Virus record (IMG/VR): IMGVR_UViG_3300021255_000027
Coordinates: 3,239-67,238 of that record
Strand: one strand, 5' to 3'
Origin: a virus
Length of the DNA: 64,000 bases
Below are positions 34,301 through 63,546 of the stretch, piece by piece. Every line of letters begins with the position of its first letter. Position 1 is the first letter of the stretch. The translations under genes and the position numbers were made by a program. The notes under the pieces were generated by a model. The model was given only the letters and a program-made list of their open reading frames with translations, ran no database searches and had not been told where the DNA came from.

Positions 34301-37300
34301 GTCTCCTCAGATCTCATCAAGTGATCTACGATAAGACCTACCAGTGCATCAGCATTCTTCTTGACCGTCTTCGGGGCTTTGCCCACAGAGGTTGTGACGA
34401 TTCCCAGAAGCCTTGCAATCTCCCTTCTGTTGAGAGTATCGATGTTCTGATCCTTGATGATGTTCTTCGCAAGCACCGTGATGGTGTTCACGGTCTTCTT
34501 GTCATACTCCTTCTGGAGTGACATGGCCTTGATGGTGGTAAGGGCATTGTCCTCCCTTGCCGCAGCTTTATTCTCATCCTTGGTCTGCTTGGCGTCATCT
34601 GCCATAGACTCGGCTCTGTTCTCGGCTTCCTCAATATCATCAGCAAGTCTGAACCTTACAGGATCTGCGAACTCTCCGACCTGCAGTCTGCGCTGCATGG
34701 CGATGTCATTCACGGTGTCGAGGAGGTCATCGTCTTCTACCTTCCGGTCACCTCTCCAGAGGATATACCTTGCAGTCCTCTCGTCAAGGTCTCCTACATA
34801 GTCACGAAGCATGTTGGCAGCGAGTCCTGCTATTCCGGTCTCGTCTCCCTTCTCAACTGCTTCTGCTATGGCATTCTGTGTAGCCTCGGAGAAGAGGAAT
34901 CCATCTCCGGCCCTATCGACTATCCGCTCACGGATCTCCTTGGGGATTGCACGGTAGACATTGTGATAGAGTTCTGTAGCGTTCTCATCACCGATTACTC
35001 TGGTCAGTCCTCCTTCACGGGATTCGTTGAACAGATTCTGGCTCCTACGGAAGAGGACATCTTCCTTGGCTTCAGTTTCCTTGACCTTGCCGGAAGGAGT
35101 GTCACTTATCTGGACTCCTCTGTTCTCCAGTTCTTCACGGAGTGAAGGGGTGACGGTGTTGTAGGGGACTGCGATGTCTTCTCCTTCCAAAAGCTCTGCA
35201 ATCCTGTCTGCCACCTCGCTGTCAGGAACAATGCGAATCGGCTTGTCCCATCTGGAGAGAATCACCTTGCGCTTCTTCTCTTCGGGCAGTTTGCTACTGA
35301 CAGGCCCAGCATGCCATGTCATCTCTCCTACGGAGTCCTTGGCTTTCTCTGCCTTGTATCCGCTCGTCAGTTCGCTTTCGGGAACTTCCACCTCTACGGT
35401 CACCAGATTCGGTCTGTCATAAGCAGAGGTGAACTGGTCATTGAGAGGGGAGCGAGAGGTATGAATGTACGGATTATACCTTGCCTTGAGCGACTTGCCG
35501 TTACCCTTGTTAAGGGTGAAGTTGCCCTTTGCATCTGCGAGATCCGGTCTTTCAACGGCCTCCTCCCAGACACCGAGTTCAATCGGCTCTTGCATCTTGC
35601 CCTCAACCTTGGCGGCCATTGGAGGATAGAGTTGTCCATCTATCTCCTGCATAGCACGATAGACCTTGATTGTCGGCTCGGACTCCAGTCGCTCAAGTGT
35701 TGCCGGGTCGGTTACCTTGCGGAACTGAACAATCTGCTCACTCCTGGAGTACTCCTCTGTGACTTCAGGAGAATACTTCTGCCTCTTTTCATCGGACAGG
35801 GTAGACCTTCTTTCTACATTCCTTGCCTCTACCTCGCCTGCGGAATTCTCATAGCTCTTTTCTCCTGCCTTCTCTGCTGTCTTCACGACCTTGGCAGCAC
35901 GACTGACGAACTTCTTGAACTCATCATCGGAGATCCCCTTCAGATAGTTGATGAGATTCCTAAAGTATTCCTTATCCTGTTCAGTCAGGTTAGACTGGTC
36001 ATAGTTCTCTGCAAATCTAATGACCTTACTCCTTCCGACCTGGTTCAGTTTCCTTGCAGAGTTCTTCCTTGAGAAGAACCAAGCGAAGTAGGTCTCTTCG
36101 GGTTTAGACTTTAGAGCATCACGATAATAGAGTCTTTCTCCCTGCTTTGCATTCGTCCCTTTGGCAAAGCCTTCAATATGCTGAATAGCATGTTGCAACT
36201 CATGGAGGATCGTGCGAATACCTTCTTTGGTCAGTTGCCTCTGTCCATCGCTTTCCTTTGTATTGTAATCCGTATCAAGGACTATCCTATTCTTCTCCGC
36301 ACTATATGCTCCTGCCGCTACAGTATTTGCCAAATCAATAGGAATCTCGGCCAATTGCGGATATGAAGCAAACAATTCGGGGGCATCAAGTACCTCGCTA
36401 GCGATGTTGTGTTTCTGCAGGCTTACACCCTCTTTCTGCTTGGCATCGGGAATCTCATTGCGCCACTTGCCATCGGCACCTCTCTCCCAGCCAGTGGCTC
36501 TCCAGATTGTCTGGCTATCCTTGCCAGCATTCTCCATCTCTTCTGCCACCTCCAGGTTGTCCAGTGCCGCCTCATCCTCTGCGTTCTCTGCTCCGATTAT
36601 CCCACGGAGACTGAAGCGGATGTCATCACTCTCTTCGTTGAACCTTTCTGAAAGAGGGATAACATTGCCGTTGTCATCATAAGTGACAGGCTCTGCGGAC
36701 TTGATCTGGTTAGGAGCAAAGACTACATAGTCATCTGCTATCTCATCTTCACGAGAGACATTCTCTCCGAGTGTATCATAGATATCAGAGACTCTCTTGA
36801 CTATTAGGCCATCGTACCCTTTCTCCTTGGCTCTCTTTGCCCAGGCATTGGTATCCATCTCGCCCTGTGCAATTATACTCTTTTCAGAGATACCCTTCTC
36901 TTTTGTAAAGACAAGAGCCTCCGCATATGTGTCGAACTGCTCATCAATCTCTACTCCGTCCTTGTCCGAATAGACCTCATAGTAGGCAGGGAGTTGATCC
37001 CAACTCATACCTTCGGCATCAATGATTAAAGGGTTCTTGATGTTAAGGAAGACATTTAACAAGTCTCCTCCATCCTGTTGGTAGGTCTCGGCATGAGCTT
37101 TAATGTTTGTGAACCAGTATGTCCCCCTTGGACTATCCGACCACTTATGCTCATCGTTGAATTTCGTTATTCCCTTCTTGTAGGAGCCATGATAGACTAC
37201 TTTCGGCTTGCCATCCTCATCCACGACCTTAGTATCTGGCATAGCCAGGGCAGCAGCCTCTCTGACCATCTGCTGTGCCTTGTCCATGTCGCCAGCATTG

Positions 37301-40300
37301 ACGGCATCCATGTACTCCTTGTCCTGCTCAAGGGTAATCTGGCCCTTCCTGAACATTGTCTGCCCCTCCATCACGGACTCCTTCATCTCCGGGGTCACAT
37401 CAACGGAGTGCATAACAAGTGGACGGCCAGTCTCATCATAGACCTCTGACAGAGCAACATCCTGGACTTTGACTCCCCACTTCTTGCCGTACTTGTTCAT
37501 GAAGCGGGGGAGGATGTCATCATAGAAACCGTTCATACCTTCACCACCGACACGGAGACCATCACCTGAGATGGTCTGCTCTTCGGTGCTATCAAGAATC
37601 CTCTTGGCGATATCTTTCCCTACAACATCCGAGAGATTCTTTCCCACATACTGATCATCCCTGCTATTATCCGAGAGAATAGTCCCTTCCTTGTCGGTGT
37701 TGAAAAGTAGAACGTCTCCTTTGTTAAGGACGATATCTACGTTGTAGCCTTCAGATTTATAAGGGGTAGACTCAATCTTATTGACCACTCCTCCAAGATT
37801 GTACCTCTCTGCCTGCTGGTCACCAGTAGTCCACGCAATCTTGTCGTAGCCTTCCTCGGCAGCCAGACGGAGCATACGCTTCATCGCAAGCTCATGCCAG
37901 TTCTTCTCAAAGGGAGCAGCGGGAACTCTATCCCTTACCTTCCGCCATTCTTCTTGAGTCGTATTAACTGCTTGGTTAAGTTTAGCCGCCTTTTGGAATT
38001 CCTCCGGTGTGGCCTTGTTGTAGATTTTTTGCATCAAGACATAGGAGATATCGTCCTTCAAATTATACTTATCCCGCAGCTCTTTGGAATAATCCTCCCA
38101 TTCTTTTTCCGCTTTATCCCTCGCTTTCTTGACCAAACTAGTATTCTCATCCGTATATCCTCCTCTCTCCCTAGCTTCCTGATGCCTCTTGGACTGGATC
38201 TCATCAATGACGAGAACCCTACTTCTCCTCCCTTGTGGAGTGGTGCGGACTGGCCTTTCGTTCAGCCCTAGTTCTTCCTTGTATGCATCTCGCTCGGCTA
38301 TGGCTTCTCTCAATGCCGCCTCTGCCAAATCCAATTCTTCCTGATTGGTTGAAGCCTGAGCGGATAAGCCTGCTTCCCTCACTCGCTTCTCCAGAGAATC
38401 AAGCCTCTCCCTCTGTTCGGGGGTCAACTCTTTTTCATTCGACTGTTCCTCGCCCTGCTCACCGGCTTCAACCGATGTGGCATCTCCGAACCTTATCCAC
38501 GCCACGGCTCGACCTTCTCCGGCATCACCGAAGTGAATCTTGTCTCCTTCATTCCAAGGATCGATAGTCGGGACAGTCAAGGCAATCTCGGCCTTGTTAG
38601 ACAACCCAGGGGTAGTGTAATCCAGACGGACGCTATCAATAGGTCTGACCTCTGCTCCATCTAGTCCTAAGAAATATTTTGTGGCATCATTGAATTCTTC
38701 ATCGTATTCCTGCATCGGTGCAAGAGTATGTCCGTCAACCTCGAATGCAAGTCTGAAGTCATCACCATACTTCTCCACCATCTGCTCAAAGGCATACTCT
38801 GGTGCGCTTGCCCAGTAATAGGAATTCTCTACATCTCCGTTCCTCCATTCATCTGCGAAGGTATCAAACTCATCCTGATATCTTTGCAGAGCTTCTGAAG
38901 CAGCCCTTTCTGCACCTAGAATAGCCTCCTCGGAATAATGCTGTTCCTCAATCTGGATTCGGTTCTGTTCAATGAAGTCCCCTATCTCATCTTTGGTAAG
39001 GGTCTTCTTGTCGGATTCCTTGAGCCAGTCAGAGAGTCCAAGCCATTTGTCCTCGCCAGCCTTGAGTCCACCTTCCTTCTCCAGCATCTTTCTCCACTGC
39101 TCCGGTGTGGCCTTCTCCATCTTGATCTTGTCCAGAGCCATCTCTGCATTGGAGATAAATCCGTTCTGGGTCTGGTTGGCCTTGCGGAACATCACATTGC
39201 CTTCGGGTTCAATCCCCTCATCAAAGTATCTGCGAATGTCATTGATAACCCTCTCTGGCCTTGCATGATTGTAAGACGCATAATGGTCGGAATCATAGCC
39301 ATCACCGAAGTCCACATCCACATCTCCATTTGCTCTCTGGATAAGTGTCCAAAGAACATTCTCTTGGCCACTGGTAGGCTTCGTTGCTAGATTGATGACA
39401 CCGGAGTTCAGACGAATCGCACCCCTACGGATGAAGTCGCTCATGTCGGTCTCATATCCACTAGGGGTATTCAGATCTTTCTCGTAGTTAAGGTCGCTTA
39501 TGTCACGGTGATCAACCGTGCGTCCGCCATTCAACCAACTAGAGTCCTTGTTAGGGTCAACAAGATGACGGCCACTGAAGTCAAGCATTGATCCATCAGG
39601 AATCACATATCCTGCCTCGGATAGATTCTTTGTTACTCCGAAAGTCTTCTTCGCCCGCTCGAACAACTCCTCGCTCTTCTCATCAACGATAGGCTCAACC
39701 TTGCGGAATTGGACATTCTCATCAAGAGGAAGGGTGCGGACTTTCTGTCCATCCTTCCATTCTTCCCTGAGGATGAGGTCACCTTCCTTGTTCCACTGCT
39801 CCTGCAGACCATCCACTTCTCCATCCTTGAAGTCTCCCCTCAACCACAACTTACCATTCTCATGGTATACCTCTTTCATCCCGTTTCGTTCTCCCTCAAC
39901 ATAGTGGGTTCTTGTTTGGATAGTTCCATCGGGATAATAGTATTCTACAGTGCCATCAAGTTTGCTCCCGTGGTATTCCTCCCTCTTGTGCAGTTTCCCA
40001 TTTGCACGGAATTCTTCCTCCACTCTCTTCTCCTTTCCGTTGCTATCTAAAGGCAAATAAGTCACTCTTCTTCCTATCCCTATATGGGCTTTGATTCCCT
40101 TTTCTGCTCTCCAGGAAACATAGTCCTCGTAACCGGCCAGAGTCCCTTCCTCATCAAAATGTTGAATAAATTTAGGCTCTCCTGTCTCATAATATTGTAT
40201 ATGGTCTCCAACCGTTTTCCCCTCCTTCGCTCGCCACTCATAACTTTTGTTTCCATTTCTATACCAGCCGACTTGCTCTCCATCCCTATCTCCCTCCTCA

Positions 40301-43300
40301 TTCATCTCCGCCTTCACCTTCTGCTGGCCGTTGTCATACCACTGCTCATAAGTACCGACATAGCGGTCTTCTTTTAAGACTGCCCTTCTCCTAATTTGGC
40401 CAGAAGGATACCACTCCTCGGAGATTCCCTCCTCCTTCCCGTCCTTGTATTCAATACGGGAAAGAAGCTGACTACCATCAGAATTCCATTCTTCATAGAC
40501 TCCGTTCTGACGGTTGCCCCGATACATATGACCGCCCGGCTCAATGATGAGTTTACCTCCCTCATCAACGATATAATCTGCACTACGGCCAAGTTCATCC
40601 CCTTCAACTTTCTTTGTGAGAGGAATACCATAATGGCTCTGGTCTTGCCTATCCCACCAGACCCTCGTATGGGTATCGTTGGCAGAGAAAGCAAGCAACT
40701 TACCATCCTTGAACGCCACCTGCTTCGGATATGCATTGTAGTGTTTCCAATATTTTGCGGATTGTTCCGTCAGGTTACCCTTGCCATCACCCTGAAGCAG
40801 ACACCAAGGAGATGCATCCTCACCGAAGTGGGTGTTGATAATCTTCCTCATATTCTCCCTGCTCTCCTTCGTGTTGTCCACATCATAGACCACGATTCCA
40901 TCGGGATACTCGGCAGCACGATGGAGAGTGGATACCTCGTCTGGATTGATCCTCTCCTCTGACGGCTTGAACTCCGCATGGGCATCAAGCAGTTCCATAG
41001 GGGAGTTGTAGCGTAAAGGATCTACCTTCGCCTTACCAGCGACAGAGATAGCCTGCTGAACTTTCTTCATATCCTCCGGGATACGGATTGTCCCGTTGGC
41101 GAACCACTTGGCCGTAGCAAGCTGGGTCTTGGCATCATCCAGTTTGTCAATGTAGTCCACGACCTCTGCCCTCTGCTCATCATTGAGATCCTCTCTCTTC
41201 TTTAGCCAGGACTCTACGGTGGCCTTGTTGTTCTTGGAGAGTCTGAACATCACATCCTCTTCGGTGACCACTGGCTCTGCTGCCTCGGATGCCGGCTGCT
41301 TCTGGGTTGCATTGGCTACTTCAAGAGGTTCTCTCTCGCTCTTAAACTCTCCGGTCTCAAGGTAGTTGAGGACACTCTGCTGGGCTTTGGTAATTTTATC
41401 CCCTCCGATGCGCCTCGGTGTACCTTGATGGGTGCGGGGCCTCTTCTTCTTGCCCGCCATTGCTGCAAGTTTCTCCGCACTTGCCTTGATATCCTGCCTT
41501 CCATAGTCCACATCCTTTGCGGTCTTTCCGGCCTCAACATCGGCTGCAACCTGCTCAACTCCTCTCTCAAATGCTCCTTCCTCGGTGAACCATCCTGCAT
41601 AGTAGCCTCCCTTGTCCACGAATTCATCGAAAGACCGCCTCGCCTCCTGAATATCGAAGATGGGTTTGATGCGAACCGTCTCATTGACAGAACGCCTCGT
41701 CTCATTGACGAGTTTCATATAGTCGGGATCTTCGGTGACACTCCTGCCTGTAGACGGAAGAATAAGGTCAGCGAACCTCGGCTTCAAACCCCTCTCTTCG
41801 CACAGCCGTAGGAAGGTATCCTTATCATTCATATGCTCGGTAGGCATGATGTCCCTTGACCTTCCCTTGACATCCTTATCAGCCTCCATGGCAGTGTAGT
41901 TCGTCCAATCATAGAACTTGGCGATGTCCTCTCCCGTCCTCACGATATGGAACGGGATGACTACATCCACCCAGGGCTGGTGAATTGCCCACTCAACCAT
42001 CCTGTCATTGGTGGCTACGAATACGCATCCCACGTTGCCGTATCTTTCACGCAGGGCTTGGGCTTCACCCCAGTCTGCACCCTGCTTGGTATCCATCACA
42101 ACCGTCCCATCTTCGGCTTCACGGCCATAACAGGAGATGTTGATGTTTATTCCCGTAGGTGCGAAGATCTTGGCGAAGTCTATCTCCTTGGTGTATGCGA
42201 GTCCTACCAGACCCCGCAAGGCTGCATCCCTCACCATCTGCATGTTCTCCACGATGAAGGCAGGGGAGTATTCGGAGAAGGAATAGAACCTAAGCCCATA
42301 TTCACTATTGAGGAGGTTAACTACCTTCTGGGGCATTGACAATAGTTCGCCATTGTATGCACGATATTCCTCCTGCTTCTTCGCCCACGATGCGCTCTGT
42401 GCATATTTCTCGGCATCATCTATCTGGGCTGCATATGAAGCTCCTTTCCCCGCCACCTTCTGGCGAGTCTCTGGAGAAGTGAGGTCTTTCATCCCTATCA
42501 GAGTGCCTTCGGCTATCCTGTCAAGCCAACCGTTGAATCGGTTTCTCATTGAAGGCGTGTCAGCCCTTCCATCCAGGTATTCAAGGTAGAGCTTATTTAC
42601 TTGATTGTCAGCAGACAATGCCTTGCGATTCTTCCTACTCTTCGCCTGAGCGGGAAGGCGGTAGGTTTTGTCTATGGAGTCATCAGCCTTGTATTTATCC
42701 AAGACCGCATCCCTCTGCTCGATGTATGTCTTGAGGAATCCATTGTATGCCTTCCTATCCAGTGCAACGTAGCAGTACAGACACTGCGGGTCGGTGGCTA
42801 TGTCGTAGAGCATCTGGGAAGCGAGGAACGACTCAGTAGGAGTAAGAGGTCTCCCAACCTTCTCCTGCACGGCATTCACGAAGTCATTGTATGCGAGAGT
42901 CCTCATGCATATGAGGGTGTTCTCCATCGTCCTGCCATACGATCCGTTCTTGAAGATGGTTGACCAACCCTTGCCGAATATCTCTTCTGGCAGATACCTC
43001 TTCCCATCCTTGACCTTGTCAAGGTACGGCATCATGTAGTTTACCATCTCTCCGATGGCATCGCTTCCGATTGCCAGTTCCTCTGGTGTTAGTGGCTTAT
43101 CGGCCAACTTGGCAAGGAAACCATCTGCCAGGGTGCGAAGTCCGGGAACAGGCTTCCCTTCACCGTCTACGGAGTCTTCCTCCCTTCTGAGGGAGAACAT
43201 GGTCTCGTCAGGGGCAGAAGGAGATTCCTGTCCCGTGGGTGCATCCATATAGGATGTGAGTTTGCCGTCCTCTATGACGAAGTTTGTGCCCTTCTCTTGC

Positions 43301-46300
43301 TGGGCAGGGGAGAGGGTAGGAGTTACTTGTTCTCCTGCTCCTTCAGTTCCTTGATCGCTTCCTTCTCCAGATCCAGATCCCTGTTCTCCCAGGTTCCCTT
43401 CGGGCTGCGATGCGCTATCTCCGCCATCTTGTCGTTCACCTTCTTGGGCATTGTCACCAGAAAGTGTATCTCGTCCTGACGAATCGAGCGTCTGATCATT
43501 TCCTCGTTCTCCATTGTATATGGTTTTTACAAAGTTAATAATTTCTTGATTATCAAGACCGGCATTGCGGAGATTCTCATCAACATTTTCGGGGGTGCTT
43601 TCTGCAACCACCTCCATTGAGAGTGCTATTACCTCGTCTGCCAGAGCCTGTTGGGGATTAGGGTAGTCAAGATAGTCTCCATATCCATTCTTGTCACTGA
43701 CTCCGGCCATTTTGTTGGCGGCAGCAAGAAGGTATTCTGTTGTCGCTCCAGGGATAGATGCAACGACTTTCTGGTATCCATTCTGCCTATTGACCTCATG
43801 CCAATGCTCATGGAGATGGGCAAGCCTTGCTCTCCTTGCATCCCTGATGTCATCGGCAACGATGAAGACGGTATTACCGATATGGAATCCTTCAGTAAGA
43901 GTACCTTCGGCATTCAACTGGTCTCTGACCTGTCCGATGACCCTCTCGGAGAATCCGAGTTCTGCCATTCTCTGGAGTATGTCTGCCCTTGTACCTACGA
44001 CTGTAGGATCTGTGGTGGTGAGTGCATAATACTCTTCCAGAGCCTGCCTCTTCTCTTCGGGAGTCTTGGCTTCTGCCAGTCTGCTCTCAAGGGCTTGTTC
44101 GGGAGTCTGGGGAGCCACCTCTTCCTGAACTTCGGGAGCAGCCTCTACTTCTCCCTGTGTCTGCGCTGCCTCTGCAACGGGTGCTGCCTCTGTGGTCTCT
44201 GCTACTGGAGCAGGAGCTTCGGCAGGGGTCTCGACTGCTTCCGTCTGTGCGACCTCGGCATTGGCATAGTTGTTCTCTATCCTCTCAAGGTCTGCTATCC
44301 TTGAATTGATCTGACCAAGCTGGCCTTCCAACTCGGAGATCCTATCGAAGTCAAGTTCACTGTCAATCTGCTTCTGGACTGCCTTGGCATCGGACTGGAG
44401 TTTCTTCGTAGCCTTGGCGATGTATCCACGGCTATTTGCTCCTCCATCATTCCTCTGTGAGTCATTCCATCTTGCCCATGCTTCGGGATCTGCATTCCAG
44501 AGTGCGGTCTGGTTGACTGAACCATCATCCTTCAGAGGGATAGGATTGCCTCTGAAGTCACGCAGTGTATTATCTTCCTCTATGGGTGCTTCCTCTTCTG
44601 TCTGCACCTCTTCTGCTTGTGTCTCTTCTGGAGTCTTGAGAGAATCAAGGACAGATGTGAGATTACCCTGAAGGGCCATCTCCTCCGTTATCTGCTCATC
44701 CTTGCCCGTCTCCTTGTCGGTGACCTGGAGCATCATTGTCCCATCTTCGTTGAGGAATGCCCTCTTGAACTGGTATGTAACCGGCTCCTCACCCTCTACC
44801 AGAACGGCATTGAATTCCGTTCCTTCGGGTATGGTCTTATTGTAGTCCTCCTTCCTGCTACGGATATCGTCTTCTGCCTGGATCTCTTCCTGCTCGATCT
44901 GCTCATCGGTCTTGACCTCGACAGGAGTACCGAGGTAGTTGCCCACCTGCTCCCAAGTCAAGGTAGCATCCTTTGCTCCGTCCTCATCCTGCCAAGTGAC
45001 ATGCACACCATTGGCATTAGCGGCATCCACGACTGCCATCTTCGGTGCTTCCTCTGTACCCATGTTGATAGTAGGGTCGGCAGCTATTCTTTCTTGAATG
45101 GCAGTAATCTGGCTTGATGTCTCCTCTGCCATCCTCTGCTCTTCTGCAGCCCTCTGGTCGTTCTCGCTGATTCCGTCCAGATAGTCATTGATTGGCTGTT
45201 CTCCGGAGTCTGTGAGTGAACCATCGGCAATTCCAGCCTCAAGCTCCTCATTGGTGAGGAACGAGTAACTGCCATCCTTGCCGATCAGGGCATACTGACC
45301 ATCTAACGAATTCACGACAAACCTCTCATTGCCCTCTGCATCGGTGATGGTACGGACGTAGTTTGCTCCGTTCTCTCCCTCATGATACCAGCTCTTGTTT
45401 CCTACCTGCTCATCCAGGAGAGCGGTATTCTGCGCACGGGCTATATCCTGCTCTTCATCGAAGATTCCCCTGAGGACTTTATATTGTGCTGCGGATTGGA
45501 GATACTGCCCCATCGCCATACCCAGATCAGGTGCGATGTCGTTGGTAAGCAGACCTGTGTCTCCTACCATCTTGCCAATCTTGGCAATCTCCGAACCGAG
45601 TTCTGCAGGAGTTTTCATCAGTTCGTTTCCGTTGTTGCTGATTGCCCTAAGACTATCCTCGACATCTTCCATCCGCTCCTCATCCAGGCCAAGGTTGTTC
45701 AATATGGTCTTCAGTTGGTCACCATACTTGGACATCTGTTTCCCTGCCTTGCGAATCTGATATCCCGATGCCCCCGCACCGATGATGCTCATGGGAGCGA
45801 AGGATGCGAGAGTAGTCCAGAATTCATCACCACTAAAGAAATTCTTGAGTGCTTCGGGATCTGTTCCGACTTCTGGGATAGACCTCATGGCATTGCCAAG
45901 GACTTCCTCGGCCATTTCACCAATCAGTCCATGCCAGCCCGCATCCTTGAGCAGACGGCCTGCACCAGTCCTTGACATGGCCTTGCCTATCTCTCCAAGT
46001 TTACTCTTGGCTATGCCATCGAAAATCTTTGTTTCAAATGGAATCCCAAAGAGTTCTCCTGCATTCTCAGAGAAGGTCTCAATGAGTCCATCCTCAATAG
46101 CCTTCCTGACAGCCTTGGCAGACAGATCCATCTGACCCTCGCCATTTAGTTGGGTCATGGTATTGATAAAGTTGGCATAAGATGAAGGCATCAAAGGAGT
46201 CATGACCAGTGCCTTTGTCGCACCCTCAAGACCTCCCACGAGCATCTTCTTGCCAGCTTCGGACAATGTCTTGCCCGCCATCTCTTTAGCGGTAGTTTTA

Positions 46301-47598
46301 AGCAGACTCTTCGCTGCCGCAGAACCGACACCTCCGGTAATAAGGAAGTCTCCCATGAATCCGAGAGACTGAACTGCTCCCTTACCAGCATTATAGCCGA
46401 TGGACATATTGTCCGACCTCCCTTGCTCAACTTCAAATCTCTTGGCGAAAGCCTTCAACATTTCCTTCTGACCATCGCTCAGATAGTTGAGTTTATCCGA
46501 GTCATTATTGATGAGATTAATGAGATTTACATCCTTGCCTTCGGCCTGCTGTATCTGCTTGACAGTATTTATGAGGTTGACATCCTGAAGGGATTTGGCA
46601 AGTTCAAGGATGGATACTGCGCTTGTGATATTCGCTCCCACTCCCTTCGCAAAGTTCACCAGACCCCATGAGTCATCATACTTGCTAGGTGCTTTCGCAG
46701 TCTCCAGAGCTTCCTTGTAGTATTTCCTAGCAGTGAGGTAGTAATCCTGCTCCTGCTCATTGCCTTGCCTTTCCTCTGCTCCGCCAATCAGATCCAATGC
46801 TTCTTGGTCGCTCATATTGGCAGACCTACCGGATATATTGGCATTCTCCTTGGCCTTCGCATCCATGGCATCAATAAGACTGGGGAGTTCCTCCTTCGTC
46901 TTATTCCAATAAGCTATCCAAGCAGGGTTGTTCTCTCTCTCCTTACGAAGTTGTTCAAGTTCCTTCTTGATCTCGGATCTCCTTCTCCCTTCAGGGCTAT
47001 TGGCTTCTTGCGCATACTGGATTGCTTCTGCCCTTGACAGACCACGATAATCCCTCTCTTCGGGAAGAGTATCCAACTCATTCTCAAGAGCCTCTATTCT
47101 TGAGTATATGTCTATAAGCCTATCTGCTCCTTCTGGACGGCTGCTAGGTTGGTTACCATATCTGTCCTTTACCTTGCCATATCTGTCAGCATTTTGACCT
47201 ACGAAGTCAATATACTGCTGCTTCTCCTCATCGGGAAGGTTGGCATCATCCACCTTGCTCTGGGCGAACTCATATTGATGTGCGAAATCCCGATTGCGCC
47301 TTGCCGTGATGTCATCCGACACGCTTATCTTTGCTCCTGGGTATTTCTCCATCAAATTCTTCCCTGCCTTTGAGAACTGGTCGTAATTCCAATCCGTTTC
47401 CCTTCCGTCATCCAGAGTGATATGGAAACTGGAATCGGGGGTCAGTTCCGACTGATCAGAGTATCCAGATATTCTGTTCACTTGAGCATCTGGGTATTTC
47501 TCAAAAAGGCTTTGGGCTGCTTTGTTATACTGCTTCTGATCCCACTCCGTCTGTCTTCCATCGGGGAGGGAGATGCTGAACTTTACATCTTCTGGCAT
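31375..47598 (-). CDS. giant polyvalent (internal virion/ejection) protein, 5407 aa
   Basis: Uninterrupted ORF; HExxH peptidase motifs, MORN-like repeats, ART-like YHGS domain, LPD23-like domain, C-terminal hydrophobic helices. Confidence 0.85.
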   Translation of the reverse strand: MPEDVKFSISLPDGRQTEWDQKQYNKAAQSLFEKYPDAQVNRISGYSDQSELTPDSSFHITLDDGRETDWNYDQFSKAGKNLMEKYPGAKISVSDDITARRNRDFAHQYEFAQSKVDDANLPDEEKQQYIDFVGQNADRYGKVKDRYGNQPSSRPEGADRLIDIYSRIEALENELDTLPEERDYRGLSRAEAIQYAQEANSPEGRRRSEIKKELEQLRKERENNPAWIAYWNKTKEELPSLIDAMDAKAKENANISGRSANMSDQEALDLIGGAEERQGNEQEQDYYLTARKYYKEALETAKAPSKYDDSWGLVNFAKGVGANITSAVSILELAKSLQDVNLINTVKQIQQAEGKDVNLINLINNDSDKLNYLSDGQKEMLKAFAKRFEVEQGRSDNMSIGYNAGKGAVQSLGFMGDFLITGGVGSAAAKSLLKTTAKEMAGKTLSEAGKKMLVGGLEGATKALVMTPLMPSSYANFINTMTQLNGEGQMDLSAKAVRKAIEDGLIETFSENAGELFGIPFETKIFDGIAKSKLGEIGKAMSRTGAGRLLKDAGWHGLIGEMAEEVLGNAMRSIPEVGTDPEALKNFFSGDEFWTTLASFAPMSIIGAGASGYQIRKAGKQMSKYGDQLKTILNNLGLDEERMEDVEDSLRAISNNGNELMKTPAELGSEIAKIGKMVGDTGLLTNDIAPDLGMAMGQYLQSAAQYKVLRGIFDEEQDIARAQNTALLDEQVGNKSWYHEGENGANYVRTITDAEGNERFVVNSLDGQYALIGKDGSYSFLTNEELEAGIADGSLTDSGEQPINDYLDGISENDQRAAEEQRMAEETSSQITAIQERIAADPTINMGTEEAPKMAVVDAANANGVHVTWQDEDGAKDATLTWEQVGNYLGTPVEVKTDEQIEQEEIQAEDDIRSRKEDYNKTIPEGTEFNAVLVEGEEPVTYQFKRAFLNEDGTMMLQVTDKETGKDEQITEEMALQGNLTSVLDSLKTPEETQAEEVQTEEEAPIEEDNTLRDFRGNPIPLKDDGSVNQTALWNADPEAWARWNDSQRNDGGANSRGYIAKATKKLQSDAKAVQKQIDSELDFDRISELEGQLGQINSRIADLERIENNYANAEVAQTEAVETPAEAPAPVAETTEAAPVAEAAQTQGEVEAAPEVQEEVAPQTPEQALESRLAEAKTPEEKRQALEEYYALTTTDPTVVGTRADILQRMAELGFSERVIGQVRDQLNAEGTLTEGFHIGNTVFIVADDIRDARRARLAHLHEHWHEVNRQNGYQKVVASIPGATTEYLLAAANKMAGVSDKNGYGDYLDYPNPQQALADEVIALSMEVVAESTPENVDENLRNAGLDNQEIINFVKTIYNGERGNDQTLDSSGRDTLSGDNAQEGERQDGGDSASQPEGNLGEQGSGSGEGSDQGTEGAGEQVTPTLSPAQQEKGTNFVIEDGKLTSYMDAPTGQESPSAPDETMFSLRREEDSVDGEGKPVPGLRTLADGFLAKLADKPLTPEELAIGSDAIGEMVNYMMPYLDKVKDGKRYLPEEIFGKGWSTIFKNGSYGRTMENTLICMRTLAYNDFVNAVQEKVGRPLTPTESFLASQMLYDIATDPQCLYCYVALDRKAYNGFLKTYIEQRDAVLDKYKADDSIDKTYRLPAQAKSRKNRKALSADNQVNKLYLEYLDGRADTPSMRNRFNGWLDRIAEGTLIGMKDLTSPETRQKVAGKGASYAAQIDDAEKYAQSASWAKKQEEYRAYNGELLSMPQKVVNLLNSEYGLRFYSFSEYSPAFIVENMQMVRDAALRGLVGLAYTKEIDFAKIFAPTGININISCYGREAEDGTVVMDTKQGADWGEAQALRERYGNVGCVFVATNDRMVEWAIHQPWVDVVIPFHIVRTGEDIAKFYDWTNYTAMEADKDVKGRSRDIMPTEHMNDKDTFLRLCEERGLKPRFADLILPSTGRSVTEDPDYMKLVNETRRSVNETVRIKPIFDIQEARRSFDEFVDKGGYYAGWFTEEGAFERGVEQVAADVEAGKTAKDVDYGRQDIKASAEKLAAMAGKKKRPRTHQGTPRRIGGDKITKAQQSVLNYLETGEFKSEREPLEVANATQKQPASEAAEPVVTEEDVMFRLSKNNKATVESWLKKREDLNDEQRAEVVDYIDKLDDAKTQLATAKWFANGTIRIPEDMKKVQQAISVAGKAKVDPLRYNSPMELLDAHAEFKPSEERINPDEVSTLHRAAEYPDGIVVYDVDNTKESRENMRKIINTHFGEDASPWCLLQGDGKGNLTEQSAKYWKHYNAYPKQVAFKDGKLLAFSANDTHTRVWWDRQDQSHYGIPLTKKVEGDELGRSADYIVDEGGKLIIEPGGHMYRGNRQNGVYEEWNSDGSQLLSRIEYKDGKEEGISEEWYPSGQIRRRAVLKEDRYVGTYEQWYDNGQQKVKAEMNEEGDRDGEQVGWYRNGNKSYEWRAKEGKTVGDHIQYYETGEPKFIQHFDEEGTLAGYEDYVSWRAEKGIKAHIGIGRRVTYLPLDSNGKEKRVEEEFRANGKLHKREEYHGSKLDGTVEYYYPDGTIQTRTHYVEGERNGMKEVYHENGKLWLRGDFKDGEVDGLQEQWNKEGDLILREEWKDGQKVRTLPLDENVQFRKVEPIVDEKSEELFERAKKTFGVTKNLSEAGYVIPDGSMLDFSGRHLVDPNKDSSWLNGGRTVDHRDISDLNYEKDLNTPSGYETDMSDFIRRGAIRLNSGVINLATKPTSGQENVLWTLIQRANGDVDVDFGDGYDSDHYASYNHARPERVINDIRRYFDEGIEPEGNVMFRKANQTQNGFISNAEMALDKIKMEKATPEQWRKMLEKEGGLKAGEDKWLGLSDWLKESDKKTLTKDEIGDFIEQNRIQIEEQHYSEEAILGAERAASEALQRYQDEFDTFADEWRNGDVENSYYWASAPEYAFEQMVEKYGDDFRLAFEVDGHTLAPMQEYDEEFNDATKYFLGLDGAEVRPIDSVRLDYTTPGLSNKAEIALTVPTIDPWNEGDKIHFGDAGEGRAVAWIRFGDATSVEAGEQGEEQSNEKELTPEQRERLDSLEKRVREAGLSAQASTNQEELDLAEAALREAIAERDAYKEELGLNERPVRTTPQGRRSRVLVIDEIQSKRHQEARERGGYTDENTSLVKKARDKAEKEWEDYSKELRDKYNLKDDISYVLMQKIYNKATPEEFQKAAKLNQAVNTTQEEWRKVRDRVPAAPFEKNWHELAMKRMLRLAAEEGYDKIAWTTGDQQAERYNLGGVVNKIESTPYKSEGYNVDIVLNKGDVLLFNTDKEGTILSDNSRDDQYVGKNLSDVVGKDIAKRILDSTEEQTISGDGLRVGGEGMNGFYDDILPRFMNKYGKKWGVKVQDVALSEVYDETGRPLVMHSVDVTPEMKESVMEGQTMFRKGQITLEQDKEYMDAVNAGDMDKAQQMVREAAALAMPDTKVVDEDGKPKVVYHGSYKKGITKFNDEHKWSDSPRGTYWFTNIKAHAETYQQDGGDLLNVFLNIKNPLIIDAEGMSWDQLPAYYEVYSDKDGVEIDEQFDTYAEALVFTKEKGISEKSIIAQGEMDTNAWAKRAKEKGYDGLIVKRVSDIYDTLGENVSREDEIADDYVVFAPNQIKSAEPVTYDDNGNVIPLSERFNEESDDIRFSLRGIIGAENAEDEAALDNLEVAEEMENAGKDSQTIWRATGWERGADGKWRNEIPDAKQKEGVSLQKHNIASEVLDAPELFASYPQLAEIPIDLANTVAAGAYSAEKNRIVLDTDYNTKESDGQRQLTKEGIRTILHELQHAIQHIEGFAKGTNAKQGERLYYRDALKSKPEETYFAWFFSRKNSARKLNQVGRSKVIRFAENYDQSNLTEQDKEYFRNLINYLKGISDDEFKKFVSRAAKVVKTAEKAGEKSYENSAGEVEARNVERRSTLSDEKRQKYSPEVTEEYSRSEQIVQFRKVTDPATLERLESEPTIKVYRAMQEIDGQLYPPMAAKVEGKMQEPIELGVWEEAVERPDLADAKGNFTLNKGNGKSLKARYNPYIHTSRSPLNDQFTSAYDRPNLVTVEVEVPESELTSGYKAEKAKDSVGEMTWHAGPVSSKLPEEKKRKVILSRWDKPIRIVPDSEVADRIAELLEGEDIAVPYNTVTPSLREELENRGVQISDTPSGKVKETEAKEDVLFRRSQNLFNESREGGLTRVIGDENATELYHNVYRAIPKEIRERIVDRAGDGFLFSEATQNAIAEAVEKGDETGIAGLAANMLRDYVGDLDERTARYILWRGDRKVEDDDLLDTVNDIAMQRRLQVGEFADPVRFRLADDIEEAENRAESMADDAKQTKDENKAAAREDNALTTIKAMSLQKEYDKKTVNTITVLAKNIIKDQNIDTLNRREIARLLGIVTTSVGKAPKTVKKNADALVGLIVDHLMRSEETKLGMLANRKATKTNQAGVEVQGELDVRGQNILRAYKAGLDMDIENPDDEFDGNTIKGRLSTLSERLSSTDDAVRSEAEDEYAGLMLAQEYQENIKASINEERGLKNEMKEAAEAYRDGNISRTGYNQFVEEAEKSLRENKIDRIEAYRNLRAKMLDMMAGSVEARKEFTEREKQRVEEIHHLANSDMQGRSASSFQESTRMGRLANSSIVRFFAKPLATFDQMLRLFGEKNVAGEGYLFNKFHRGWLDAQENAYLGEKQAKEELDAKVSEVFDKKMRWSDLYEEERKMPTVKVKWWDGGEMKEHDLTQGNLLYIYMVNKMTDGRMKLRRMGITEETVDAIKRQMDSRFIELADWLQDEYLVNKRNKYNAVHERLFGASMAAIEDYFPLKINKRSLNRAEDIGRPEFDDALPATTTGSIIKRRRNAQDLDLLGADAFSVVIEHVEQMEQWAAFAEFNKDLNTLLSYKRFRNQVQNMATVYGSGSELWRNFKAVCRVAGGTYNPAGKKSDLDTAALNIAKGVTAAKISFRVYTALKQFLSMPAFVSDANIKYLGENMATPWKAWNWAMENLPLFEKRWKSRQAGDTRLMKTESDWKLWRNKIVEKASQWGMSPNAFVDALTVSIGAHSIYQSRYDRYIKDGYTEAQADKKAKQDATTLYNETQQSNEAAFTSPVQLDRTVLATMLTVFRNSSMGYQRQLHDAIRNIGKMMKPGYKAASIEFMTKQMVRDGLTEEQAEHAANRNYEREKWRSAARVATFGFLVQFAWNLGGSIAYLLFGDDDDKKDEMLTEALIHGLIGGTIEGLAGGNVMSEALNMVAKGESLNNYDPSLLPIISDMKSAYKKMSYDPVAGANDLINLAIQAGIGVNPQTLTDAVVAVVDACGGDLDTSKEAMLLIMRVLQVPQSQVDEIYIDELGENAASAKRMSVSEMAERYARYKVAKGAPITGWAYSDEAEEKREKAYLKRFKKLVKERKSK

Positions 47599-60330: not shown

Positions 60331-61038
60331 ATGGACTGGCAATATACACAAGACAACCCCTTGAGGGTAGTGACCCTCTGCTCTGGCTACGACAGTCAGC
60401 TTATGGCAATCCGCAACCTCGGCATCCCCTATGTCTGCGTAGGGTGGTCGGAGATCGACAAGTATGCTATCAAGGCTCACGATGCCGTGTTCCCAGAGTA
60501 TGCGGACAGGAATCTCGGTGACATGACCAAGATAGATTGGAGTGGAGTGGAAGACTTTGACCTCTTGTTCTATTCGACTCCTTGCACAGACTTCTCAAAT
60601 GCGGGCAAGCAGGCAGGGGGTGAGGAAGGATCAGGCACCCGCTCTTCTATACTCTGGTACACCAGACACGCAATAATTACGAAGAAGCCAAAGTACCTGG
60701 TGATGGAAAATGTCAAAGCCCTTGTCAGCGACAAGTTCCGTCCGCTCTTCCTCAAGTGGTGTGACGAACTCACCTCCTATGGCTATACCAACTTCATGCA
60801 GGTACTCAATGCCAAGGACTATGGTATCCCGCAGAATCGTGAAAGGATCTTCGTTGTCAGCATCCTTGGTGATGCCTGGTATTCCTTCCCACAGCCGAGG
60901 GAACTGAAGCTCAGACTAAAGGATATGCTTGAAGACAAGGTGGACGAGAAATACTACCTCGACCAGGATAAGGTCAACCAGTTCATTGAAAGCCTTGATG
61001 ATGAAAAACTCAAGCTCATTGAAAAGGATTCCGATTAA
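60331..61038 (+). CDS. C5 cytosine DNA methyltransferase, N-terminal part (motifs I-VIII)
   Basis: LCSGYD (I), SEID, GDMT, TPCTDFS (IV), ENV (VI), PQNRER (VIII); stops before motifs IX-X. Confidence 0.92.
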   Translation: MDWQYTQDNPLRVVTLCSGYDSQLMAIRNLGIPYVCVGWSEIDKYAIKAHDAVFPEYADRNLGDMTKIDWSGVEDFDLLFYSTPCTDFSNAGKQAGGEEGSGTRSSILWYTRHAIITKKPKYLVMENVKALVSDKFRPLFLKWCDELTSYGYTNFMQVLNAKDYGIPQNRERIFVVSILGDAWYSFPQPRELKLRLKDMLEDKVDEKYYLDQDKVNQFIESLDDEKLKLIEKDSD

Positions 61039-61196
61039 TGAATATCTGGATAGTACCGATGAAGGGCAAGGGACACGAGGTGACTGCGAGGAACATAGTG
61101 CTTGATGATCCGATGGAGGATTGCAGACCACTAACAACCGACCCGAAGGACAATGTGATGGTTTATGAAGATGATACCGAAAGCCGTAATGGGTAG
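61038..61196 (+). CDS. TRD-like mini-ORF 1
   Basis: Hand translation ...CRPLTTDPKDNVMVYE... Confidence 0.6.
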   Translation: MNIWIVPMKGKGHEVTARNIVLDDPMEDCRPLTTDPKDNVMVYEDDTESRNG

Positions 61197-61335
61197 CGCA
61201 CAGAAGAACTGCTACTTCGGACTTGTGGATTCATATTGTTCCTGCATAACTGCCGCTTGTGGAATGGGGGGGGGCCAAATCCCGATGATAATTGAAACAA
61301 ATGAGAAAGATGATACCGATAAACACGACTGCTGA
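61165..61335 (+). CDS. TRD-like mini-ORF 2 (G9 tract, in frame)
   Basis: ...CSCITAACGMGGGQIPMIIE... Confidence 0.65.
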   Translation: MKMIPKAVMGSAQKNCYFGLVDSYCSCITAACGMGGGQIPMIIETNEKDDTDKHDC

Positions 61336-61543
61336 CGGATGCGCTTTCACAGTCAGAGCAAGATACGATGGGGCATGCCTAAAGAGTTTGACAGGGGGGG
61401 GGCGGATACTATCCGAATACGGGTGTATTGGAGGTCTCGCAAGAACCCTTACCGCACGATACTACAAGACAGGAGTCACCAATATAATCGGACATTGGGA
61501 TGATGGATTTGCGACAACAGGAATCCTTGAGGTGTATGAATGA
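61301..61543 (+). CDS. TRD-like mini-ORFs 3/4 joined through a G9 tract
   Basis: IPINTTADGCAFTVRARY and GLARTLTARYYK...TTGILEVYE. Confidence 0.65.
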   Translation: MRKMIPINTTADGCAFTVRARYDGACLKSLTGGGRILSEYGCIGGLARTLTARYYKTGVTNIIGHWDDGFATTGILEVYE

Positions 61544-61727
61544 TGATGTGATAATCCTTGGGCTTTATAGTCCCAACTCCCAGATGGGGGGGGCGAGTTT
61601 TCTCAAAGGAAGGTCTGGCTCCGACTATAATGGCAGGGACACACGGATATGGGTTCGGATGTATATTGGAATATGGAGAAGATCAGGATAAGGGAAGCGA
61701 CAGAGAAGGGCTATGCCGAGGTCGGTG
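61536..61727 (+). pseudogene. TRD-like mini-ORF 5, out of frame at a G8 tract
   Basis: One G fewer gives GGRVFSKEGLAPTIMAGTHGYGFGCILEY. Confidence 0.65.
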
Positions 61728-61864
61728 AAGGAGGAGTGTTTGATGCGAGCTACCCGACCTCCAACACCAGGAGAGGCAGAGTCCAATATGGTGGGGCGAT
61801 TTGTCCGACACTGACATCCGCAAGACAGGAGATATACTACTTTGAGGAGGTATGGATAAGATAG
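61673..61864 (+). CDS. TRD-like mini-ORF 6
   Basis: IREATEKGY...SYPTSNTRRGRVQ...ICPTLT. Confidence 0.75.
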   Translation: MEKIRIREATEKGYAEVGEGGVFDASYPTSNTRRGRVQYGGAICPTLTSARQEIYYFEEVWIR

Positions 61865-62034
61865 TTCACATAGGCAATCTCTATGGCCCAGACAGAGGGA
61901 CAGGATATGCGGGGAACATCTGGGGCAAGCAAGGTCTCGCACCTGCTTTGACAACGATGGGTGGGGGCATGAGAGAGCCGATGATAGTTGAATATGAGGA
62001 TAAGGATGATACGATACCCACATGGGTACTTTAG
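61852..62034 (+). CDS. TRD-like mini-ORF 7
   Basis: GTGYAGNIW...GLAPALTTMGGGMREPMIVEYE. Confidence 0.75.
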   Translation: MDKIVHIGNLYGPDRGTGYAGNIWGKQGLAPALTTMGGGMREPMIVEYEDKDDTIPTWVL

Positions 62035-62185
62035 GGGAGGGTTATGGGAAAACGGATATGCCCCGACCATCACGACTTCCGCTTGGGAATTTAACAACTA
62101 TGTGCTTGAGATACATTACGACTGCGATACTGACAAGGGAACGGAGCGAAGAGGAGAAGAGGAGAAGACATATCTACGGAGATAA
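61994..62185 (+). CDS. TRD-like mini-ORF 8
   Basis: PHGYFRGG...APTITTSAWEFNNYVLE. Confidence 0.7.
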   Translation: MRIRMIRYPHGYFRGGLWENGYAPTITTSAWEFNNYVLEIHYDCDTDKGTERRGEEEKTYLRR

Positions 62186-62339
62186 GGGAGCGAAATTCTC
62201 TGGTGGCAAGATACCGAAAATTGACCTTGGACAAGTGATAGGAACAGTTACTACGATGGTTACAAAAGACTTGTTATTGATTGAGAGTTATGAATCGGAT
62301 AGTGATAGCGGGAAGGATAGGCAGACATCAGCAGGATAG
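62100..62339 (+). CDS. TRD-like mini-ORF 9
   Basis: LTRERSEEEKRRRH...IGTVTTMVTKDLLLIESYE. Confidence 0.7.
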   Translation: MCLRYITTAILTRERSEEEKRRRHIYGDKGAKFSGGKIPKIDLGQVIGTVTTMVTKDLLLIESYESDSDSGKDRQTSAG

Positions 62340-62502
62340 GATAATATCTACCGAAGGGATTTGCCCAGCATTGACCGCAGGATCACATCTGAACGCAGGA
62401 TGGATGAATTTGATATTGGATGTTAAGGATAATAATGAACACAACGGAGGATGGGATATGCCGGACAATCCTCGCAACCTACTACAAGATAGGGACGTAT
62501 AA
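62290..62502 (+). CDS. TRD-like mini-ORF 10
   Basis: HQQDRIISTEGICPALTAG. Confidence 0.7.
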   Translation: MNRIVIAGRIGRHQQDRIISTEGICPALTAGSHLNAGWMNLILDVKDNNEHNGGWDMPDNPRNLLQDRDV

Positions 62503-62584
62503 CGTGTTTGAGCATAGTTTCCCGGCGGTGATGGAAGTGTATGAAAGTAAAAGAGATGGAGAAGGGTTGCTCGTACAAGGGTAA
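62420..62584 (+). CDS. TRD-like mini-ORF 11
   Basis: Hand translation MNTTEDGICRTILATYYK...PAVMEVYE. Confidence 0.65.
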   Translation: MLRIIMNTTEDGICRTILATYYKIGTYNVFEHSFPAVMEVYESKRDGEGLLVQG

Positions 62585-62924
62585 GTTCATACCTGTCTGG
62601 TGGGGGCTTTATGATGGGACTTCCGTTGAGTTCTTCCGAGGTGCGCTCCCAGGAATATCCAGGACCCTCAAATGTGATAATAGTGCAAGTGTATGTGTAG
62701 AACAAATTGATAACGATATGGCAAAGATTTACAGAATTAGAAAGCTCACTCCACTTGAGTGCATGAGACTGATGGGAGTCAAGGATGAGGACACACAGAA
62801 AATGAAGGATGCAGGGATATCCGATAGCCAACTCTATAAGATGGCAGGAAACTCAATCGTAGTCCCCGTGCTTGAAGGAATCTTCACCCAGATGTTCAGG
62901 GTAGACAAAGACTGTTTGTTTTAA
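62541..62924 (+). CDS. TRD-like module 12 fused to C5 methyltransferase motifs IX-X
   Basis: GISRTLKC; YRIRKLTPLECMRLMG (IX); LYKMAGNSIVVPV (X). Confidence 0.9.
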   Translation: MKVKEMEKGCSYKGKFIPVWWGLYDGTSVEFFRGALPGISRTLKCDNSASVCVEQIDNDMAKIYRIRKLTPLECMRLMGVKDEDTQKMKDAGISDSQLYKMAGNSIVVPVLEGIFTQMFRVDKDCLF

Positions 62925-62930
62925 TGGGTG

Positions 62931-63038
62931 GCCGATGTGGTATAAGGGTATGATCGCCTTCCTATGGAAGTCTAAAGGATTTCGTCTATTGCAAGCGGCA
63001 TAGGTAAGGAGATGTCGGTTCGAGTCCGACCATCGGCC
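62931..63038 (+). ncRNA. tRNA-like RNA with enlarged anticodon arm
   Basis: GCCGATG/CATCGGC acceptor stem; GTCGG-TTCGAGT-CCGAC T arm. Confidence 0.6.
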
Positions 63039-63431: not shown

Positions 63432-63525
63432 TCCCTCCTATGTCACGGTGACAGAATGTCGATCATACTTTTTTCATCACGCACGTAATACTTTGCCCAT
63501 TGGGGTTCGACTCCCCGGGAGGGAA
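63432..63525 (+). ncRNA. tRNA-like RNA with replaced anticodon arm
   Basis: TCCCTCC/GGAGGGA acceptor; TGTC-ACGGT-GACA D arm; TGGGG-TTCGACT-CCCCG T arm. Confidence 0.6.
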
Positions 63526-63546
63526 CAAGAAATTAACATTAAGGAT

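Follow-up and report, generated by a model that had tools for sequence, protein, structure and literature searches.

A stretch of 64,000 nucleotides (the window), bases 3239-67238 of the complete 67,238-bp virus record IMGVR_UViG_3300021255_000027 with direct terminal repeats, carries at positions 60331-62924 a locus whose sequence is best read as a C5 DNA methyltransferase, multispecific and made of several pieces, from a phage of the gut or rumen. The catalytic motifs are encoded in two separated pieces, and the gap between these core pieces is tiled by 12 different modules that resemble target-recognition domains (TRDs). We think it probable, without great assurance, that this is a split multispecific methylase whose TRDs are translated separately, are partly phase-variable and act in trans.

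How is the catalytic core divided? A preliminary description of this DNA, made from the letters alone, had motifs I-VIII ending at a stop at 61038 and motifs IX-X resuming downstream, and the PF00145 profile returns the same picture. The core pieces are as follows.

60331 to 61038, plus strand: N-part, C5 methyltransferase motifs I-VIII, 235 aa (PF00145 profile positions 2-215 of 324, E 2.3e-46)
62541 to 62924, plus strand: module 12 (M12) and C-part (motifs IX-X) in one frame, 127 aa (PF00145 positions 269-323, E 1.5e-10)

The features of the C5 family are present in pieces, motifs I-VIII (Pro-Cys, ENV, QxRxR) in the N-part and motifs IX-X in the C-part, with 1.5 kb separating the two sets. 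P84-C85, N127-V128 and Q168-N169-R170-E171-R172 of the N-part are invariant among 12 sequences and E126 is nearly so; YRIRKLT..EC..L and GNSIVV of the C-part are invariant among 10. The usual one-polypeptide form of these enzymes is not what the window encodes: the N-part closes after motif VIII with a TAA (61036-61038) in a TAATG stop/start overlap with module 1, and 11 further open reading frames (ORFs) come before or include motif IX. An internal Met at 62718, just before YRIRKLT, is aligned in 8 of 10 C-part sequences, and a start at this putative site could yield a TRD-less C-part of 68 aa.

All ORF starts that had been listed for the gap (61038, 61165, 61301, 61536, 61673, 61852, 61994, 62100, 62290, 62420 and 62541, all on the plus strand) were found again, each module with a T-L/I-T-like signature (RPLTT, SCITA, AFTV/RTLTA, APTIMA, CPTLTS, APALTT, APTITT, GTVTT, CPALTA, CRTILA and SRTLK). 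The modules ahead of M12 are given here (L003 and L012 are related loci in other viral contigs, described below).

61038 to 61196, plus strand: M1 mini-ORF, 52 aa, ..RPLTT..VMVYE followed by an acidic tail
61165 to 61335, plus strand: M2 mini-ORF, 56 aa, its ATG inside the TAT GAA of M1, with a G9 tract (61266-61274) in frame
61301 to 61543, plus strand: N-half of M3 joined through a G9 tract (61394-61402) to M4, a hybrid ORF of 80 aa
61536 to 61728, plus strand: M5, split by a G8 tract (61586-61593)
61673 to 61864, plus strand: M6 mini-ORF, 63 aa, ..TRRGRVQ..CPTLTS..IYYFEE
61852 to 62034, plus strand: M7 mini-ORF, 60 aa, ..GLAPALTTMGGG..MIVEYE
61994 to 62185, plus strand: M8 mini-ORF, 63 aa, ..YAPTITTSAWEFNNYVLE
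62100 to 62339, plus strand: M9 mini-ORF, 79 aa from ATG 62100 (start chosen by orthology with L012 and L003), ..TRERSEEEKRRR..GTVTT..LLIESYE
62290 to 62502, plus strand: M10 mini-ORF, 70 aa, ..GICPALTAG..
62420 to 62584, plus strand: M11 mini-ORF, 54 aa, ..GICRTILATYYK..VMEVYE

The count of about 12 modules stands, but not all of them are separately encoded as had been proposed: M12 is fused to motifs IX-X, M3 and M4 share a hybrid ORF, and M5 is out of frame. The hydrophobic-E-x-Y-E strand likewise closes most modules, with the Tyr absent at the ends of M2 (..MIIETNE) and M10 (..LILDVKD). Along the array the frames run 1, 3, 1, 2, 3 (changing to 1 at the G8), 2, 1, 2, 3, 1, 2, 3, and the step from one ORF to the next is +1 throughout, except at the first, TAATG, junction.

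Is this layout peculiar to one genome? Scanning viral contigs with the N-part gave 544 confirmed matches, and the best 80 loci were kept (L001-L080). The layout recurs in L001-L023 (53-93% identity), where the N-part frame stops before any C-part and short TRD-like ORFs are arrayed after it; with 23 of the best 80 loci, the family is common in animal-gut viromes. The stop falls at about 231-249 aa in L001-L012, L014, L015, L017 and L019 and at 268-330 aa in L016, L018 and L020-L023 (counted from the start of the match, at 230-245 aa in L001-L012, L014 and L015), and a C-part follows 0.5-3.0 kb downstream in 15 loci, those that reach far enough. The other 57 loci (L024-L080) are ordinary one-ORF enzymes of 357 or 384 aa, whose core parts have no G-run and no more than one TATGA between them. 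Eleven relatives' arrays were examined, and they show short TRD-like ORFs in stepping frames as in the window. The cleanest is L015, in which 16 junction ATGs were detected and nearly every ORF ends in ..VYED-stop with the next ATG inside TATGA.

Several relatives arrange the core differently. L005 and L014 have a stand-alone C-part ORF without a TRD (77 and 83 aa), and in L014 an HNH endonuclease gene (L014:8114-8533; Pfam HNH, E 6.7e-5) lies between the array and this C-part. In L017, L018 and L022 motifs IX-X are fused ahead of I-VIII in one ORF, a permuted core with two separate PF00145 matches, the I-VIII part beginning at residue 101-121. In L018 the core lacks a TRD and is followed by five TRD mini-ORFs and then by unrelated genes, with no downstream C-part. 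Judged by their gene order, the layouts of L005, L014, L017, L018 and L022 favour modules that act in trans: a TRD has no way to the core in these phages except as a protein of its own or, for the first module alone, possibly as a C-terminal fusion. As a separate observation, one ORF of L017 (L017:5538-7630) reads TRD, IX-X, then I-VIII and has TRD mini-ORFs on both sides; its downstream array ends without a further C-part, and L017 contains no G-run of at least 7.

What holds the junctions between modules together? We defined the module-end motif as two hydrophobic residues followed by x-x-Y-[ED], usually E-x-Y-E. Across 12 arrays its Tyr is encoded by TAT in 74 of 75 cases, including all four strict-motif junctions of the window, compared with 47 TAT to 29 TAC for Tyr-[ED] in the other genes of the window (Fisher p 2.6e-9). 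TAT followed by GA gives an ATG in the +1 frame, so that keeping the Tyr as TAT conserves the ATG of the next ORF; at the sole TAC junction (L015 7290) the downstream ORF uses a different ATG. The placing of the next ATG in the end motif, in the +1 frame, had been part of the preliminary description; the window does have an ATG at 11 of 11 junctions, but the first of them, TAATG, is not a +1 step. Contexts vary (TATGA four times, TATGG, TATGT, AATGA, GATGT, GTATGG and TAATG), which leaves the ATG as the only shared junction feature. These patterns indicate that the start codons at the junctions are under selection.

The distance from the ATG to the stop of the upstream ORF has a median of 32 nt over 96 junctions, compared with 62 nt at random positions in the same arrays, and spans 8 to 314 nt. 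Such short distances would fit overlapping, coupled ORFs, an arrangement that explains the constant +1 step without frameshifting. Greedy ORF tiling gave +1 in 79, +2 in 46 and 0 in 25 of 150 steps, and these counts were not used as a statistic because they mix true junctions with poly-G breaks and chance frames. A Shine-Dalgarno role was considered as the reason for the E-x-Y-E motif and rejected, as none of the 29 window gene starts inspected is preceded by GGAGG or a similar sequence, their leaders being A/T-rich.

But are the modules really TRDs? Pfam returned no family at E <= 1 for the 8 module ORFs searched, so that TRD identity rests on matches to one-chain homologues; a PDB sequence search gave 0 matches for M6 and 3 chance matches for M7 (E 0.47-1). 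M6 matched five longer proteins among 18 candidates. It aligns with the TRD region of the one-chain PF00145 proteins P0001, P0003 and P0004 (E 2.5e-13 to 2.5e-10), and in P0001 (396 aa, one TRD) the match sits between motifs VIII and IX. In P0003 (605 aa) and P0004 (595 aa) a single chain carries several TRDs in the same frame; by eye, stretches of P0004 resemble window types M6, M7, M8, M9, M11 and M12, so the M7 type is found there in cis. The alignments indicate that M6, the one module searched in this way, is a real TRD. They also indicate that cis multispecific enzymes of the same lineage exist, and because of P0003 and P0004 we read the window family as their taken-apart form.

Orthologues of M1 in L002, L003, L004, L006 and L011 are 58-64% identical, with a ratio of nonsynonymous to synonymous substitution rates (dN/dS) of 0.27 in the one computable comparison. 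M6 has 16 matches in relatives and M7 has 13 (dN/dS 0.08-0.21 for M7); the ratio is 0.27-0.41 for M8 and 0.25-0.34 for M11, which is 66% identical to the L015 module at 7693. For M9 the orthologues are 51-79% identical with dS saturated. Taken together, dN/dS lies at 0.08-0.41 in the 16 of 45 listed module comparisons with a computable dS, and in the other 29, where dS is saturated, protein identity is still 35-79%. The modules are thus under purifying selection, the lack of which had been named as grounds against the earlier proposal.

A structural model of N-part, module and C-part together gave a further line of evidence. Three chains were folded from our own alignments: the N-part, the C-part begun at Met 62718, and M6, the partner that was scored. 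M6 scored 0.61, compared with 0.21 for the best of 3 controls. In a calibration not strictly valid for own alignments or for three chains, the score mark is reached by 58 of 80 complexes with solved structures and by 2 of 110 mismatched pairs. Model runs share at least 68% of contacts, and the core chains have a pLDDT (predicted local distance difference test) of 85, only the module being scored. In the model the A-I-C-P-T-L-T loop of M6 (41-49) contacts QNRER (N-part 167-171) and residues 15-19 and 40-45 of the C-part (motifs IX, X), while the terminal strand (54-63) pairs with C-part residues 1-10. These predicted contacts are those of a canonical C5 methyltransferase, with the free module in the canonical TRD position, and the hydrophobic-E-x-Y-E tail would be a docking strand. 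What the model shows is that the pieces fit a known fold, not that they bind.

The array has another unusual property, its long G tracts. Three of them lie in window modules.

61266 to 61274, plus strand: G9 in M2, in frame
61394 to 61402, plus strand: G9 in M3, out of frame with the module's own C-half
61586 to 61593, plus strand: G8 in M5, out of frame

The 1,705-bp array has no further G-run of at least 7, and in the remaining 62,296 bp of the window no such run, of G or of C, occurs. The arrays of the eleven relatives hold 0-16 G-runs (up to 16 in L006), with few in the flanks, and L015 alone has none. Side observations are that the arrays of L004 and L011 also hold runs of 8-10 C (3 and 4, respectively), with none in their flanks, and that L015:6694-9300, free of G-runs of at least 7, has nearly all its modules intact, their Gly-rich loops being encoded with mixed codons.

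Tract length sets the frame in these coding regions, as in phase-variable genes, with G8-G9 in three window modules. Against the intact L015 reference, M3/M4 is in frame 2 before its tract and in frame 3 after it (dN/dS 0.11-0.35); the head of M5 runs in frame 3 from ATG 61536 and its body (..GLAPTIMAG..CILEYGE) in frame 1 to the stop at 61728, and L003 carries both M5 halves in one frame. Frame states were tallied by hand from alignments of intact L015 modules to the other arrays, L015 references being used because broken queries align in frame to equally broken targets. In-frame tracts number nine, of which 8 are G9; the 18 out-of-frame tracts (G7 once, G8 eight times, G9 three times, G10 three times, G11 twice, G12 once) show shifts in both directions, and four ambiguous tracts (L012-7096, L006-8496, L006-8645 and L010-8584) were left out. 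One third in frame is the expectation for drifting tract lengths, and the tracts look more like contingency switching than like a one-way programmed shift. Orthologous tracts in eight relatives read G8, G8, G8, G8, G9, G10, G11 and G12.

Whole modules also come and go. A close-strain contig joins 61039 to 61325, removing M1 and M2; a contig of run X2 joins 61992 to 62118, with M8 missing or replaced; and in close-strain contigs 62422 to 62698 is replaced by 123 nt. As all these joints fall at or near module borders, the modules behave as units of gain and loss.

How, then, might the enzyme work? In the mechanism that we favour, the catalytic core would be made as two proteins, the N-part (I-VIII) and the C-part (IX-X, here with one cis TRD), and the other TRDs would be translated as separate proteins of 50-80 aa. 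Each module would start at an ATG within the last codons of the preceding ORF, in overlapping and probably coupled translation. One module at a time would dock between the core pieces, its T-L-T loop set against motif VIII (QNRER) and motif IX and its C-terminal hydrophobic-E-x-Y-E strand paired with the strand that opens the C-part. One core could in this way methylate as many motifs as there are modules expressed, and the phage DNA would be shielded from many restriction systems. Poly-G slippage would switch single modules on or off and leave the rest untouched, which would be possible only with modules that are separate translation units. Plug-in TRD subunits had been proposed before; the conserved ATGs, the stand-alone IX-X and permuted cores, the TRD homology of M6 and the three-chain model speak for them, while separate translation, trans assembly, multispecific methylation, phase switching and the anti-restriction benefit are inferred.

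A number of observations weigh against this mechanism. The C-part of the window has its own cis TRD, with which free modules would have to compete unless they use the putative C-part from Met 62718. The genes of this phage lack Shine-Dalgarno sequences, so internal initiation has to rely on coupling or on unstructured mRNA. M2, M5b (the frame-1 part of M5) and M10 have no orthologue in L001-L023 at E <= 1e-4, and with M3/M4 a hybrid and M5 broken, part of the array may be decaying. In the model, the pLDDT of M6 is at least 43 (44-60), leaving the partner fold uncertain, and apart from the loose calibration the pass may reflect the model's memory of many solved one-chain structures. As for switching, the out-of-frame G8 at 61586-61593 is the same in contigs of runs X2, X3 and X4, which speaks against ongoing change, and the contigs of three other assemblies show no change of tract length at 61394 or 61586; contigs hide minority tract lengths, which leaves room for switching, and the parts not covered in X2-X4 are uninformative. 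In the neighbourhood, the contigs that share the G8 have 0, 12 and 17 other differences from the window, and a conserved 'off' length at this tract is unexpected for a fast switch.

Which other explanations could account for the locus? An error of assembly or sequencing at homopolymers and repeats might be suspected, as the record is a metagenome assembly and three long G-runs lie in the region, but of the 11 places where the window changes frame 8 lie away from homopolymers, assemblies made independently from other samples and studies have these frames too, ungapped wherever they cover the region, and the layout is common to 22 further contigs; we give this next to no credence. A more serious thought is that only an M.AquI-like pair, the N-part and the C-part with its cis TRD, is active, the upstream modules being a silent store from which new TRDs are recombined, at the conserved junctions, into the last and expressed position. 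The last module of the window is indeed in frame with IX-X, between close strains whole modules differ, the joints lying at module borders, and junction sequences are alike (e.g. ..GAnnTnTATGAAG). Silent cassettes, however, need neither an ATG of their own (TAT in 74 of 75) nor open frames under purifying selection, in L005, L014 and L018 no TRD is joined to the core in cis, and all modules have the same orientation, so that we regard a cassette library as unlikely.

Could the pieces instead form one long chain, with a +1 shift or a four-base codon at each junction yielding a multi-TRD enzyme in cis, as in P0003 and P0004? Nearly all steps are +1, and a shift at the junctions would restore the domain order of the cis homologues. 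Serial +1 frameshifts had been offered in the preliminary description as an alternative to free subunits, and this part of it does not hold up well: the ATG is the only shared feature, with no slippery motif and no fixed stop position (8 to 314 nt), the first window junction is a TAATG overlap and not +1, and eleven serial shifts would leave almost no full-length product. A four-base reading, TATG as Tyr, was tried and rejected, as it breaks the N-part at Y34 and meets many stops; no tested reading yields one ORF across the array. Moreover, 18 of the 27 interpretable poly-G tracts are out of frame, several of them together in one array, and any of them would end the chain and remove motifs IX-X, which argues against a single chain, while the L014 locus has an HNH gene within it. 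Such a chain is, in our estimate, very improbable, and hardly less so is the idea that the array is the non-functional wreck of a former cis multispecific methyltransferase broken by frameshifts. Decay would agree with the existence of cis multi-TRD homologues, with the state of M5 and M3/M4 in the window and with the roughly two thirds of tracts that are out of frame. Yet the split and the +1 pattern are kept in 23 loci with saturated synonymous sites, dN/dS is well below 1 where computable, and the modules of L015, which has no poly-G, are intact; random decay would leave indels of both signs in random places, not an ATG at each module border.

Known systems share parts of this design. Multispecific C5 methyltransferases of Bacillus temperate phages (SPR, phi3T, rho11s and H2; Trautner laboratory) have TRDs of about 40-60 aa. 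Like the window, with its 12 modules, enzymes of the SPR/phi3T type carry a tandem series of different TRDs between motifs VIII and IX of one core and have a presumed anti-restriction role. Tandem TRDs in one chain in Bacillus phages are described in a review (PMC12707154). In the SPR/phi3T type TRDs and core form a single polypeptide, whereas here the TRDs are in separate ORFs with their own ATG, the core is split or permuted, the arrays are longer (12 modules; 16 junction ATGs in L015) and poly-G tracts are many. M.AquI is a two-subunit C5 methyltransferase with I-VIII and IX-X on adjacent genes, split in the variable region. The window N-part (235 aa) and C-part (127 aa, one TRD) resemble it in being separate ORFs, their assembly being modelled only; M.AquI has two pieces and one specificity, whereas here ten or so extra TRD-only genes lie between the halves, and in relatives L005 and L014 the C-part has no TRD. 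The M.BssHII type is a circularly permuted C5 methyltransferase, as are L017, L018 and L022 (IX-X before I-VIII), but the window is not permuted, L018 has no cis TRD, and TRD mini-ORFs follow the permuted cores.

Switching of specificity also has precedents. In phasevarions (Type III mod, Type I hsdS) simple-sequence tracts in coding regions switch methylation specificity, and in Type I systems a separate specificity subunit, HsdS, aims a common methylase. Coding tracts and, in our reading, a separate specificity subunit are what these systems have in common with the locus; they are, however, cellular enzymes, for the most part adenine methylases, in which a gene has a single tract or hsdS cassettes invert. 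The locus described here belongs to a phage C5 enzyme, with as many as 16 tracts in one array (L006), about one per module. A small piece that acts in trans is known from M.EcoHK31I alpha/beta, whose small chain, overlapping in another frame, supplies motif IX and is needed for activity (PMC2836561). This need implies that part of the small domain of a C5 methyltransferase can be supplied in trans; unlike here, the TRD of M.EcoHK31I stays in its large chain, and one specificity, no array and no poly-G are described. Tandem one-chain TRDs, naturally split C5 methyltransferases and bacterial phase-variable methyltransferases are thus established elements. Our literature search, with subscription journals and supplements outside it, found no description of TRDs as free-standing genes or of per-TRD poly-G switches in phages, and the available portion of PMC11954522 describes no TRDs as separate genes.

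Near-identical or partial DNA matches to the window come from animal-gut and bovine-gut metagenome runs (20 matches from 12 studies); among these 20, at least half of the window's sequence words are present in run X1 only, and no RNA runs are listed. The A/T-rich leaders without Shine-Dalgarno sequence resemble those of phages of Bacteroidota, and together with the gut and rumen sources they hint, and only hint, at a host in this phylum. A blastn search of INPHARED phages turned up no related array, the core alone giving 3 weak partial matches. One ORF of 5,407 aa, at 31375-47598 on the minus strand, is by a wide margin the phage's largest gene. Immediately after the methylase locus lies a tRNA-like gene, 62931-63038 on the plus strand, which weakly matches Rfam tRNA with 31.2 bits (E 9e-4) and has 47 nt in the anticodon region where the model has 11; with introns allowed, ARAGORN calls it tRNA-Ala(TGC) with a 30-nt insert. 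A weaker call at about 63432-63526 on the plus strand, tRNA-Val(CAC) with a 16-nt insert, appears in ARAGORN with introns allowed and a lowered threshold, and Rfam has no match there at E <= 1; default ARAGORN on the whole window finds no tRNA. The idea that these downstream elements are frameshift suppressors was considered, and no link between them and the module junctions was found.

What would such an enzyme mean? To our knowledge, an autonomous specificity subunit is known for Type I HsdS and not for the C5 methyltransferase class. If the modules act in trans, the TRD of a C5 methyltransferase would be just that, an autonomous and exchangeable specificity subunit, and a small constant core with plug-in readers of 50-80 aa would make an attractive scaffold for programmable writing of 5-methylcytosine. 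The reading would also account for the number of specificities, far beyond what one chain could hold, in phages whose gut and rumen hosts are rich in restriction systems, and it would provide a first example of a viral anti-restriction enzyme that varies in phase module by module. One may go a step further and propose bet-hedging, in which a split core and a dozen or more TRD mini-proteins that plug in singly, many of them toggled independently by poly-G, give siblings with up to 2^n methylation patterns; this is finely balanced, and we lean slightly against it. If it is true, the phage would hedge against Type II restriction, in which methylation is an advantage, as well as against methylation-dependent restriction, in which it is a liability, and the layout of separate ORFs would be an adaptation that enables per-module switching.

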